Source of the DNA: a virus | Lineage: Duplodnaviria; Heunggongvirae; Uroviricota; Caudoviricetes | Reading direction: 5' to 3' (one strand) | Virus record (IMG/VR): IMGVR_UViG_2563366840_000001 | DNA: 64,000 nt | In this document: in pieces, positions 21,773 to 24,623 of the stretch | Layout: every line of letters starts with the position of its first letter | Numbering within the stretch: position 1 is the stretch's first letter | Program-made: the position numbers and the translations under genes | Notes under the pieces: generated by a model | Seen by the model: only the letters and a program-made list of their open reading frames with translations | What the model was told of the DNA's origin: nothing | Database searches by the model: none

Positions 21773-22465
21773 TCATGCTGCACCATCACCTTTCACTTTC
21801 ATCAATGTCAGGTTTCCGCAAAATACGGCACCAGTATCGATATAATGCTGATTCCAGAATGTCTTCGGGCTTTTCACCAGAGTGTGACCAAAGATAAAAC
21901 GATCTGCGCCCGAAATTTCGCCACCAATATCATCCATCGAATCACTGATACGCTCGCGCGCCCAGACAACGTTGAAAAGCGGCACCTCCTTACCGAATTG
22001 ATATTCATTATCCGGATAGTCGGCATGGGCTATAACGATAGTTTCTTGCCCGGTGTTCAACTCAATGATATAGGGCAGTCGTCTTACCAACTCCACCAGC
22101 GCCCTGGCTAATATTTCCTGATCAGCGTCCAGCATGAAGAACCATTGACCGCCATTCATTAGCCAGTTATTCACGTTGCCATCAGGACTTAACGCATCAA
22201 TCATCAGCCGCTCATGGTTGCCCATAACCGCTCTGAACCATGGCATCTGCAATAGCTCCAGGCATTTAACATTTTCGGTGCCGCGATCGATAAGGTCGCC
22301 GACCGATATCAGTAAATCCTGCGCAGGGTCAAAATCCACACGATGGAGTTCGGACATCAGTCTGGTGTAGCAACCATGCAGATCACCAACAACCCAGATA
22401 TTCCTGTATTTGGTACCGTCGATACGGTGATAAATTGTGGGTGCCATCATGTATTCTTCAGCCAT
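21773..22465 (-). CDS. ppp: Ser/Thr protein phosphatase, lambda-PPase-like metallophosphatase (230 aa), P1 ppp-like
   Basis: GDLHG...GDLIDRG...GNHE metallophosphatase motifs. Confidence 0.7.
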
Positions 22466-23073
22466 TCTTTAAGAGTCATCTGCGGAATACCTCCCATTTT
22501 CCCGCATGAAACAACGTCAATCTGTTCACGCGCAGACTGGAATAACAAAGGCAGGTGACTTAGATTTTTTGGCGTGCCGCCGGAGTGAACGCGTGGTTCT
22601 TGCGTAGCGTCAACGCCCACCAGGGCTACATGTTTGAATCCGATATGGAAAGCCAGGTTCAGAGCACCATATGCACTATTGCCACTGGCAATTTCATTCT
22701 CATCTTCACAAAGGCCGAAATGTGCGGACCAGCGCCACGCCCACCACTCGGGAGAATTCGTATTTTTTGGCTCGATGCCGCGTTCAGCCACACGACGGAA
22801 GCACAGAACGCCGTCTCTGACTTCACGTTCTTTAACATCGGGTAGTGCCATGCAATAACAAACACCACGGCGACGGCGGCCACGACCAACGCGCCGCATA
22901 TTGTCTGGGGATGGATCAAGGGTGAAAAAATAAGAAGCGCGGTTAAGCCAGTCGATAGCCCCATTGACCGCTATAATCGGCACTCCGCGCGGCGCAACAA
23001 AGTTTGCGGCGCTTGGGCCACTGCCGACGATAATAACGCGATCACTGCCTCTAAATTTATTCTTGGGAAACAT
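22447..23073 (-). CDS. Hypothetical protein with GSGPS motif (MptE/DUF115-like?), 208 aa
   Basis: [10 protein letters not shown]-terminal motif; paralogous to upstream gene; family call tentative. Confidence 0.45.
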
Positions 23074-23633
23074 TGAATTGCACTGCTCCTACTTGCATTC
23101 AAAATATGTAAATCTGCGTGTTTTTTGCGGGTATCCAAGAACTGCTGTTGCCATTTTGAAATAGACACCTGCGTTGGATTCCGTAGGGCTTGAGGGTGCG
23201 CACCATGCCAATGAAGGCCGTTTTGCAGAGAACAGTCATAGCCGACTAATACCACTACTTCAGCCCCTGATTCAGCAGCCAGACTGATAGCCTGCGCGCC
23301 GCTATTTACCCCTTCCGCCGGTCCACAATATCGCCTGTACTCCAACGAAAATGATTTCGCCGCCGCCAGGTTGGCTGTCACTTTGCGGAATCTCCCTCCC
23401 GGTATGGTGGAGCCGTATTGCTTCCACCATGACAAATCACCGGCGTATAAGGCATAAATGTCATCGAACATCTGCCAGGAATTGTTAACCGCGATGATTG
23501 AACAGCCAGTTTTTTCTATAGCAGCACAGTCCTCACGAGTGAGTGACGGACCGCTACCGACACAAAAAACAGTCCTAGTCGCCCTGGGTGGTATGTTCAT
23601 TCTCAGCTGCAAATTCAGCCTCCAGGCGAGCAT
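22971..23633 (-). CDS. Hypothetical protein with GSGPSL motif (MptE/DUF115-like?), 220 aa
   Basis: FCVGSGPSL motif; 103-bp overlap with downstream paralog. Confidence 0.45.
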   Translation of the reverse strand: MLAWRLNLQLRMNIPPRATRTVFCVGSGPSLTREDCAAIEKTGCSIIAVNNSWQMFDDIYALYAGDLSWWKQYGSTIPGGRFRKVTANLAAAKSFSLEYRRYCGPAEGVNSGAQAISLAAESGAEVVVLVGYDCSLQNGLHWHGAHPQALRNPTQVSISKWQQQFLDTRKKHADLHILNASRSSAIQCFPRINLEAVIALLSSAVAQAPQTLLRRAECRL

Positions 23634-23796
23634 TCATTTCAGCGATTACAGGGTCCACTACAGCATCTGTTTCCTGTTCATTACGCGGCATGATCGATGC
23701 CAGCGATTCATAATTAGCCTTGGATGACACGATTATTCTCCCGATGTTAATGTGCGCTATATCAAATGGCGCATATGCGCTAATTAATTTATTATT

Positions 23797-24375
23797 TTAA
23801 GCAGCATACAACCACTTGTCGCCGTTCAATACATGCTCAATAGCCTCACCCTTTTTAAGGCTCATGTATTCCAGGATGGCGGTTATCGCTTGTTCTGCAC
23901 CATACGCAAGAACGACGTAGTAACCTTCCTCTCTAAGCCTGCGCATCCAGGCGATCTGCTCTTGCGTCGGGGCTTTACCATTTGGTTCTTTAAGCTCAAT
24001 TCGCATGCCGTGATAAATACCGCATGCTTTATCGAGACTCATGTCCGGATAACCTTTTTTCTGCCCTTCAGCCTTCATTTTCCCGGCGGTTGCTTTTGAA
24101 CGTTTCCCTCCGTTAGGCGTTGCATGCAACAGCTCATAGATGTCAGGGTGCTTGCGTTCGAAGTAATCAAAAATGAAAACCTGCTCGAAGTGCTCGCAAT
24201 TTCCGTCGCGCAGGTCTGGGTTCTTTGCCAGTGCTGCAAGTGCCTTCGCATGTGGAGAAACTTCTTTTACCGGCGCAAGCGATAAGAATGGATCCTTTTT
24301 GGTTTTTGGCCTGGACCGCCCCTTATTTCGACGCTCACTAAAAGCCTGAAACTCTTCCTCAGTAAAGCGCAACAT
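23797..24375 (-). CDS. VRR-NUC-like nuclease domain protein (192 aa)
   Basis: GYPDMSL ... GIYHGMRIELK resembles the VRR-NUC catalytic motif. Confidence 0.5.
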   Translation of the reverse strand: MLRFTEEEFQAFSERRNKGRSRPKTKKDPFLSLAPVKEVSPHAKALAALAKNPDLRDGNCEHFEQVFIFDYFERKHPDIYELLHATPNGGKRSKATAGKMKAEGQKKGYPDMSLDKACGIYHGMRIELKEPNGKAPTQEQIAWMRRLREEGYYVVLAYGAEQAITAILEYMSLKKGEAIEHVLNGDKWLYAA

Positions 24376-24377
24376 AA

Positions 24378-24623
24378 TCAGTCAAATCCTGCCGGTCGCA
24401 TGCCATATTTACGCTGTTTTGCGGCCTGCTCTTCCCTGTGCCATTGCGCACATTCAGCGTCACAATAAATGCCTGATTCAATCGATTCATTGCAGTAACG
24501 ACACTTCCCTGTAAATACCTGGCTCACGACCTGTGCCTGCTTTCTGATGTTATCGATGGCCATGTCTTTGAGAGCTTCTAACTGATTCATGCTCAGCTCT
24601 GCATCATCAACACGTTCTGCCAA
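24378..24623 (-). CDS. DksA/TraR-like C4 zinc-finger small protein (81 aa)
   Basis: CRYC ... CDAEC cysteine pairs near the C-terminus. Confidence 0.4.
   Translation of the reverse strand: MAERVDDAELSMNQLEALKDMAIDNIRKQAQVVSQVFTGKCRYCNESIESGIYCDAECAQWHREEQAAKQRKYGMRPAGFD

Follow-up and report, generated by a model that had tools for sequence, protein, structure and literature searches.

A stretch of viral DNA of 64,000 nucleotides (IMG/VR record IMGVR_UViG_2563366840_000001, Caudoviricetes; its full length is called the window here) contains, at positions 21773-24623 of the minus strand, the known accessory block pmgL-pmgM-pmgN-pmgO-pmgP-ppp of bacteriophage P1. We propose that PmgO, PmgP, the product of the adjacent gene pmgQ, and probably also Dbn form a portable glycan-building cassette of the lytic phase, which lies beside unrelated accessory genes, and we assign a probability of roughly 60% to this reading. 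Because the locus is already known and annotated, the novelty of the finding is low; the sequence feature is ordinary, and only the hypothesis of a glycosylation cassette is new. An original prediction, made from the sequence without database searches, had described a phosphatase, two paralogs, a nuclease, and a zinc-finger protein of this block as one operon with host-takeover or nucleic acid modification functions.

PmgO (220 amino acids, 22971-23633) and PmgP (208 amino acids, 22447-23073), both encoded on the minus strand, contain the N-terminal motifs ..FCVGSGPSL.. and ..IIVGSGPSA.., respectively. A direct BLASTP comparison of the two proteins matched only 36 residues of the motif segment (E 0.004). 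For a comparison of the families, profiles were built from 34 homologs of PmgO and 40 homologs of PmgP, and the natural PmgO-PmgP fusion protein P0051 was left out of the profile-profile alignment. The two profiles aligned over 163 columns with a probability of 98% and an E-value of 1e-13, at an identity of about 23%. This is far beyond chance, and the predicted pair of paralogs with a shared GSGPS motif was thereby confirmed. On the basis of these alignments, PmgO and PmgP are taken to be genuine but ancient paralogs. Relative to PmgO, about 35 residues are inserted in PmgP. The motifs of PmgO are GSGPSL, AVN, AGD, NSG, GYDCS, and HWHG, and the family alignments revealed invariant histidines downstream of the G-x-D motif in both proteins (H141/H143 in PmgO, H173 in PmgP). 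These histidines are candidate catalytic bases.

The Pfam model PF01973 (MptE-like, formerly DUF115) scored 23.4 bits for PmgO (E 5.7e-5) and 20.9 bits for PmgP, both under the cut-off of 34.6, and the match in both proteins was limited to the C-terminal motif. Many homologs in the two families carry precomputed PF01973 matches, and one member of the PmgP family reached 44.1 bits, which is over the cut-off. Based on these transitive links via homologs, PmgO and PmgP belong to PF01973 at the superfamily level. PmgO additionally matched phrog_4603, labeled "alpha-2,3-sialyltransferase", with an E-value of 4e-74, and a search of the PDB with the PmgP-family profile revealed no sequence-level relative. 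The AlphaFold2 models of both proteins were confident, with predicted local distance difference test values of 87 for PmgO and 94.6 for PmgP. In Foldseek searches, the sole specific PDB match of PmgO was the flagellin glycosyltransferase Maf (5MU5, E 1e-4), while PmgP matched the pyrophosphokinase MptE (8SD5), then the sialyltransferases Cst-II and Cst-I, and SteA. The three-dimensional likeness to the Maf, MptE, and GT42 structures was clearly above that of generic Rossmann-like matches. According to the models, PmgO and PmgP have an MptE/DUF115 - sialyltransferase-like fold, and the label "alpha-2,3-sialyltransferase" in PHROG and RefSeq reflects this same fold. The resemblance to MptE/DUF115 proteins that had been suspected from the GSGPS motif was thus borne out at the fold level, and profile and fold searches led to the MptE/DUF115 fold group and not to an unrelated family.

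Sequence profiles linked the paralogs to WaaZ (CAZy family GT73), which transfers the third Kdo of the LPS inner core in E. coli and Salmonella. The fusion protein P0051 had a "faint" precomputed match to PF27901 (WaaZ_KDO_III), WaaZ of E. coli K-12 itself matched the Pfam MptE-like model (E 6.9e-7), and relatives of WaaZ are annotated with both PF01973 and PF27901. The family profiles of PmgP and WaaZ aligned over 190 columns, approximately the full length, with a probability of 72% and an E-value of 3.3e-5, and the motifs SGPS, AVNG, and (N/T)SA..A..LAY..L..I...G.D coincided. The alignment of the PmgO and WaaZ profiles was weaker (probability 44%, 81 columns). Among 14 Waa proteins compared with PmgP, WaaZ was the best and the only one that was resembled. 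The comparison of the single WaaZ sequence with the PmgO and PmgP profiles was uninformative (probability 12-14%). These results suggest that WaaZ is a relative, but not an ortholog, of PmgP and PmgO. The PmgO profile also aligned with Cst-II at GNGPSL/CN and TSG...GID, with an overall E-value that was not significant (0.14). The aligned columns of the PmgO family and Cst-II read vvcvasGPSLt/viiagnGPSLk, avN/rcN, and nSGarAielAaelgakriiLlGYD/tSGvymcavaialgykeiylsGiD, such that the GPSL donor loop of GT42, the following asparagine, and the T/N-S-G...G-x-D motif are all present in the PmgO family. Because the closest characterized relatives (Maf, Cst-I/II, and WaaZ) are sugar transferases, glycan synthesis is favored over pterin or nucleic acid chemistry.

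The genomic context of the paralogs was compared at 23 loci from species-representative genomes and at additional metagenomic and phage loci. PmgP almost always adjoins a homolog of PmgQ, at about 20 unrelated loci, and a PmgO homolog is usually nearby. The hosts include Enterobacterales, Pseudomonas, Ochrobactrum, Alloalcanivorax, Zhongshania, Microbulbifer, Brevundimonas, Commensalibacter, Methylophilaceae, Sinomicrobium, and Longimicrobiales, and relatives of PmgP were also found in cultured coliphages and in jumbo phages of Xanthomonas and Stenotrophomonas. All named hosts are Gram-negative and bear lipopolysaccharide (LPS). In a search of 1.84 billion representatives, 680 clusters belonged to the PmgP family at E<=1e-3; when viral contigs were scanned with the PmgP alignment, all matches were near-identical copies of P1, which gave no information on context. 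An S-adenosylmethionine-dependent methyltransferase is encoded between PmgP and PmgQ at two loci (L095 and L112), and at two others (L003 and L108) a second GT-A-like enzyme ("Nucleotid_trans") follows. Natural fusions were found for PmgO with PmgP (P0051, L003 8001-9131), for PmgP with PmgQ in both orders, and for PmgQ, PmgP, and the methyltransferase. A further fusion joins PmgP to a second, divergent domain that has weak matches to the PmgP and PmgO profiles. The fusion proteins recorded were P0051, P0299, P0369, P0379, P0351, P0417, and P0423. The core of the cassette therefore consists of PmgP and PmgQ; PmgO is frequent but optional, and the methyltransferase, the second GT-A-like enzyme, and Dbn are variable.

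In the window, the pmgQ gene is split into two parts on the minus strand. The 5' fragment (21385-21776) encodes the N-terminal approximately 128 amino acids with the DxD motif LDLDTV, and matched positions 1-128 of the 230 positions of the glycosyltransferase profile phrog_1962 (E 2e-67). The 3' fragment (19762-20081) encodes the C-terminal approximately 105 amino acids and matched profile positions 151-230 (E 3e-38). A match of PmgQ to GT8 around the DxD motif was weak (6MW5, E 0.08). PmgQ is accordingly regarded as a putative glycosyltransferase of the GT-A/GT8-like type. The dbn gene (29568-30542, minus strand) is intact and encodes a GT4-like glycosyltransferase of the GT-B type with 324 amino acids; P1 Dbn matched the Pfam model Glycos_transf_1 with an E-value of 1.5e-5. 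A homolog of Dbn with 51% identity is encoded between PmgP and PmgQ in coliphage IME392, and another is located 3 kb from a PmgQ-PmgP pair in a Buttiauxella prophage. Dbn, which is encoded 6.5 kb away from the block, is therefore probably a fourth, distal component of the cassette. In pairwise comparisons with the Waa glycosyltransferases of E. coli, PmgQ and Dbn yielded only non-significant matches at the expected motifs.

The main alternative is that PmgO and PmgP are pyrophosphokinases of the MptE or thiamine pyrophosphokinase type, which would transfer pyrophosphate from ATP to a hydroxymethyl group of a small molecule (a pterin, a thiamine-like, or a nucleotide-derived compound) or of a sugar. 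This comes near to the nucleotide or pterin-type substrates considered in the original prediction, and the fold data, taken alone, would fit it as well. However, the glycosyltransferase Maf was the best structural match for both paralogs, and the sequence-level links led to WaaZ and Cst-II, whereas profile searches of the PDB gave no match to MptE. In addition, glycosyltransferase-like proteins and a methyltransferase are the partners that are conserved or fused, and no folate, thiamine, or pterin genes were found near the approximately 20 loci. MptE serves methanopterin/folate synthesis in archaea, and FolK is already present in E. coli. A pyrophosphokinase activity of the paralogs is thus considered unlikely.

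The context comparison also bears on the unit that the original prediction had envisaged, in which the phosphatase Ppp, the two paralogs, the nuclease PmgM, and the zinc-finger protein PmgL would act together as one co-transcribed system for host takeover or nucleic acid modification. In favor of this view, all genes point in one direction and lie close together, with stop codons overlapping the start codons that follow, and in P1 each of them is subject to C1 or late control. DNA and RNA polymerase would also be plausible targets of a nuclease and a DksA-like factor. However, the combination occurs only in P1-like elements, and elsewhere PmgO, PmgP, and PmgQ are found without Ppp, PmgM, and PmgL. 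Among the loci compared, these three genes lie beside the paralogs only in a P1-like element of Pantoea (L087). Ppp does not adjoin PmgP at any non-P1 locus, and only the P1 lineage has its gene inserted between pmgP and pmgQ. Furthermore, an internal operator and promoter split the block, and the paralogs matched no nucleic acid-modifying family. In the published data, single deletions of pmgL, pmgM, pmgO, pmgP, ppp, or pmgQ did not impair the plating of P1 on E. coli K-12, and anti-restriction was unchanged. CRISPR interference knock-downs of the same six genes also left plating normal; pmgN differs in that it is non-essential by deletion but scored as essential by CRISPR interference. Because Ppp, PmgM, and PmgL join the paralogs only in P1-like elements, the block is a mosaic and not one functional unit. 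Ppp, PmgM, PmgL, and PmgN are regarded as independent accessory genes whose juxtaposition with the cassette is lineage-specific. The predicted unit was not borne out, as the partners of the paralogs elsewhere are PmgQ and the other cassette members, including PmgP-PmgQ fusions, and we give it very little chance of being correct.

Hypermodified bases are not known from P1 DNA. A role of the genes in DNA hypermodification was considered and rejected, because no DNA-modifying family was matched and anti-restriction was unchanged in the deletion mutants.

Within phage genomes, the glycan cassette was found in late regions in eight of ten phage contexts. In four phages it lies in or right beside the lysis cassette, and in three HK97-like prophages it immediately follows the gene for the major capsid protein. 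In five genomes of the Pseudescherichia group, the cassette is chromosomal and interleaved with genes for intimin/invasin-like Big_1 adhesins. The placement in late regions, near lysis and capsid genes, and among adhesin genes therefore favors a role at the envelope or on late-made proteins, and not in DNA metabolism. The Pseudescherichia island (L111 1241-14359, with the same layout in L089-L093) encodes an intimin/invasin-like inverse autotransporter of 1166 amino acids and three further proteins with Big_1 domains, which suggests an island for adhesin glycosylation or surface variation. A search for a shared acceptor, in which the adhesin-like proteins were compared with the window and 16 phage loci, gave no matches.

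The position next to capsid genes has also to be weighed with regard to the gene names, which imply that PmgN, PmgO, PmgP, and PmgQ are virion assembly factors or structural components ("putative morphogenetic function" in the P1 record, "head morphogenesis" in the P7 record). In P1, the genes lie between tail genes and pmgR/pmgS, which would agree with this view. However, the deletions were without a plaquing defect, and of the Pmg proteins, the discussion of virion proteins in the P1 study mentions only PmgC and PmgG as associated with the virion. Moreover, the paralogs are predicted to have enzyme folds with conserved nucleotide-binding motifs. We therefore see hardly any room for a morphogenetic function, even less than for the unit discussed above, and the old "morphogenetic" label of the pmg genes is probably wrong. 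A decoration of virion proteins with sugars would be an activity of the glycan cassette and does not belong to this alternative.

For the glycan cassette, the following mechanism can be envisaged. PmgP and PmgO would transfer an ulosonic acid activated with cytidine monophosphate (CMP), possibly from CMP-Kdo (Kdo, 3-deoxy-D-manno-oct-2-ulosonic acid), and the addition of hexoses from uridine diphosphate-activated sugars would fall to PmgQ and Dbn. E. coli K-12 is not known to make any CMP-sugar other than CMP-Kdo, which is made by all LPS-bearing hosts. By analogy with WaaZ, a first candidate acceptor is the Kdo/inner-core region of nascent LPS. The receptor of P1 is the terminal core glucose of LPS. 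A removal of the receptor from infected cells and debris is a possible outcome of such LPS remodeling, because WaaZ-type glycoforms lose the terminal outer-core disaccharide, the region that carries the receptor glucose. This loss is concomitant with the addition of a third Kdo onto the LPS inner core by WaaZ (PMC6358824). A second candidate acceptor would be a protein, for example of the virion or of the cell surface, as suggested by the analogy with Maf, the capsid-adjacent placement, and the adhesin island. The more specific proposal, that the DUF115-type enzymes are WaaZ-like transferases of Kdo or another CMP-ulosonic acid and, during lytic growth, either remodel the LPS inner core of the host, with the phage's own receptor being masked or removed, or O-glycosylate proteins such as those of the virion or the intimin-like adhesins of the Pseudescherichia island, is tentative, and we rate it at clearly less than even odds. 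If it is true, this would be the first Kdo-type transferase system encoded by a phage, and classic P1 genes would gain a new function. Confirmation would reveal a new way in which phages of Gram-negative hosts alter LPS or decorate proteins, and it would correct the labels "alpha-2,3-sialyltransferase" and "norphogenetic protein", which are spreading through the databases.

Several observations weigh against the glycan cassette. The link to WaaZ is only moderate, with profile probabilities of 72% for PmgP and 44% for PmgO, and the assignment of PmgQ as a putative glycosyltransferase draws on the PHROG label and the weak GT8 match with its E-value of 0.08. The searches from which the restriction to Gram-negative hosts was deduced favored close relatives. 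Two lytic phages have the cassette among replication genes. Deletions and knock-downs of pmgO, pmgP, ppp, and pmgQ left plating on K-12 normal, and the cassette proteins are not among the virion-associated Pmg proteins named in the virion-protein discussion of the P1 study. A report of a P1 glycan was not found in the literature. A literature search for functional studies of pmgO, pmgP, pmgQ, or MptE-like proteins in phages likewise found none.

The identity of the locus is clear. A megablast search of phage genomes with window positions 21300-24700 as the query yielded a DNA identity of 98.2% to P1 (AF234172 78527-81840; NC_005856), with 97% of the query aligned. The identity to P7 was 97%, and similar values were obtained for many P1-like phage-plasmids. 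The block is syntenic with P1 gene for gene; the P7 names are upf81.0, upf81.2, hdmA, hdmB, hdmC, and ppp, with the hdmA-D series denoting "head morphogenesis". In addition to pmgO and pmgP, the minus strand encodes pmgL (24378-24623; a small zinc-finger protein of 81 amino acids with a TTG start codon as in P1, supported by the open reading frame (ORF) and the P1 annotation), pmgM (23797-24375; a VRR-NUC nuclease of the PD-(D/E)xK type with 192 amino acids), pmgN (23575-23730; an acidic protein of 51 amino acids, supported by the ORF, the P1 annotation, and phrog_2350 with an E-value of 1e-37), and ppp (21773-22465; a lambda-type, PPP-family Ser/Thr phosphatase of 230 amino acids). The five genes that had been listed originally are thus real, while pmgN and the downstream pmgQ had been missed. 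ORFs of 40-90 amino acids on the plus strand inside the block were without support and were taken as spurious.

Adjacent genes overlap by 59 nt (pmgN/pmgO), 19 nt (pmgP/ppp), and 4 nt (ppp/pmgQ), and a gap of 2 nt separates pmgL and pmgM. The longest overlap, of 103 nt (22971-23073), is that of pmgO and pmgP, which are read in different frames. On the pmgO side it comprises only the non-conserved C-terminal tail (residues ~187-220), which has lower pLDDT values, and on the pmgP side the N-terminal approximately 34 residues, the conserved GSGPS loop included. An overlap of pmgO and pmgP in the +2 frame was also found in the loci of Pantoea (L087) and Chimaeribacter (L088), and a shorter one in Brevundimonas (L101). 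Genes, gene order, overlaps, and control sites are the same as in P1 and P7. The differences are the interruption of pmgQ and a few changes in the flanks, namely an additional ORF that separates ban from dbn and, at a greater distance upstream, variable segments. The extra ORF (30539-30841) encodes 100 amino acids, whereas P1 has only about 13 bp at this position.

An IS3-family (IS629-like) element at 20082-21384 on the minus strand splits pmgQ; it corresponds to a gap in the P1 alignment and is annotated as IS629 on matching records. Past the element, the alignment with P1 continues (L001 3262-6010, equal to window positions 17333-20081). The element contains the transposase ORFs orfA (21006-21332) and orfB (20119-21009), both on the minus strand, and an ALIL frameshift pseudoknot (RF01497, 20935-21051, minus strand, 120 bits), indicative of programmed frameshifting. 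This pseudoknot is inside the element, and a scan with Rfam revealed no other RNA element in the block. Because pmgQ is split, the cassette is probably inactive in this particular phage-plasmid.

The genes of the block are co-directional and separated by overlaps or a 2 nt gap throughout, except for one gap of 66 nt between pmgM and pmgN. The C1 operator Op83/Oppp (23774-23790, minus strand, TATGCGCTAATTAATTT) was mapped from the P1 annotation via the 98% identity, and so was the promoter PpmgN on the minus strand (-35 at 23822, -10 ending at 23794), which a consensus scan identified as sigma-70-like (GCGACA-17-TAAAAT). Op83 has 4 mismatches to the C1 operator consensus ATTGCTCTAATAAATTT, and it was therefore missed by the operator scan, which was limited to <=3 mismatches. 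Upstream of pmgL, the P1 annotation contains sigma-70 promoters, the late promoter LPpmgL, and the operator O26, which the consensus scan recovered here at 24681-24697. Because Op83 and PpmgN are present in the pmgM-pmgN gap, the block is not a simple single operon but consists of two nested transcription units of the lytic phase, namely pmgL-pmgM and pmgN-pmgO-pmgP-ppp-pmgQ, which C1 represses in the lysogen. Of the predicted "one operon", the tight co-directional packing was thus retained, and the uninterrupted unit was not, owing to the internal operator and promoter. A convincing terminator on the minus strand was not found in the block, so that read-through from the pmgL promoters is possible. 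In the window as a whole, nine matches to the C1 operator consensus with <=3 mismatches were found, while 0.22 were expected by chance; they include 2559-2575, 17603-17619, 19695-19711, 19744-19760, and 24681-24697. These putative operators are consistent with an intact immunity regulon of the P1 type.

The accessory genes beside the cassette could be assigned with different degrees of certainty. Ppp aligns end to end with the lambda phosphatase (PDB 1G5B, E 4.6e-93), has kept the motifs GDLHG, GDLIDRG, and GNHE, and matched Pfam Metallophos (E 1.2e-15, 58.9 bits versus a cut-off of 21.5) as well as the NinI-like phrog_246 (9e-112); it is a lambda-type Ser/Thr phosphatase, as had been predicted. 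Its scores with the NCBIfam PphA/PphB models were under the equivalog cut-offs (275 versus 326), and Ppp is therefore homologous but not orthologous to the Pph enzymes of E. coli. NCBIfam yielded nothing for PmgO, PmgP, PmgM, PmgL, and PmgQ. PmgM aligned with the "VRR-NUC" structure 4QBL (E 7e-17) including the PD...ExK core (..GYPD..RIELK..), which substantiates the VRR-NUC assignment. Its Pfam VRR_NUC score of 20.9 bits was just under the cut-off of 23.8, and phrog_5702 (Holliday junction resolvase) was matched with an E-value of 1e-26. PmgM is probably a nuclease of the junction-resolvase type, and it differs from 4QBL by an extra N-terminal region of about 75 residues. PmgL matched phrog_54, "DksA-like zinc-finger protein", with residues 5-72 (E 1.6e-12), and it contains four cysteines with the spacing CxxC-x9-Cx3C. 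The canonical spacing of DksA/TraR zinc fingers is longer, CxxC-x17-CxxC. A Pfam search at E<=0.1 gave no match to zf-dskA_traR, the sole match being the VATC treble clef (0.009), and no relative was found among PDB structures. Thus PmgL is a small zinc-finger protein, as had been stated, and its assignment to DksA/TraR is plausible but not established.

Two further features of the window were observed outside the block. From about 36000 to 64000 extends a GC-rich (55-60%) Mu-like transposable prophage with genes for a DDE transposase, a DUF935 portal protein, a tail sheath protein, and a tape measure protein. This segment is 95% identical to a region of the Enterobacter kobei plasmid NZ_CP043512, and the Mu-like phage appears to sit in or beside the P1-like phage-plasmid. 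The segments 12039-12970 and 14250-16992, upstream of pap/pmgT, did not align with the P1 reference stretch that was compared and presumably represent variable accessory content of the P1-like element.

The paralogs of the proposed cassette can be compared with four groups of characterized enzymes. For MptE (8SD5), an archaeal 6-hydroxymethyl-7,8-dihydropterin pyrophosphokinase, and for thiamine pyrophosphokinases, the difference lies in the lack of a sequence-level match in the PDB profile searches and in the genomic partners, which for PmgO and PmgP are glycosyltransferases and not pterin or thiamine genes. The sialyltransferases Cst-I and Cst-II of Campylobacter jejuni (GT42) share motifs with the paralogs at E-values that are not significant (0.14-0.7). 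The lid region of Cst-II, which carries the catalytic His188 and the phosphate-binding Tyr156/Tyr162, is much shorter in PmgO and PmgP, and the label "sialyltransferase" is probably a misnomer, because K-12 has no sialic acid donor. Maf (motility-associated factor, 5MU5), a flagellin glycosyltransferase for nonulosonic acids, has 632 amino acids and extra domains, which are thought to bind flagellin, whereas PmgO and PmgP each consist of a catalytic-type domain alone, with about 200 amino acids and 12-19% sequence identity to Maf. To our knowledge, E. coli K-12 makes neither pseudaminic nor legionaminic acid. WaaZ differs from the paralogs in that the identity is only about 24% and WaaZ is about 80 residues longer. 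PmgO and PmgP do not share its invariant R201-F-Y203 and C/H residues, and they are in addition phage-borne and come as a pair. In contrast to these differences, PmgP and PmgO belong to the same Pfam superfamily as WaaZ, and the insertion of PmgP is at the same place as that of WaaZ. PmgP and WaaZ are both soluble, lack a signal peptide, and occur in hosts that make CMP-Kdo.

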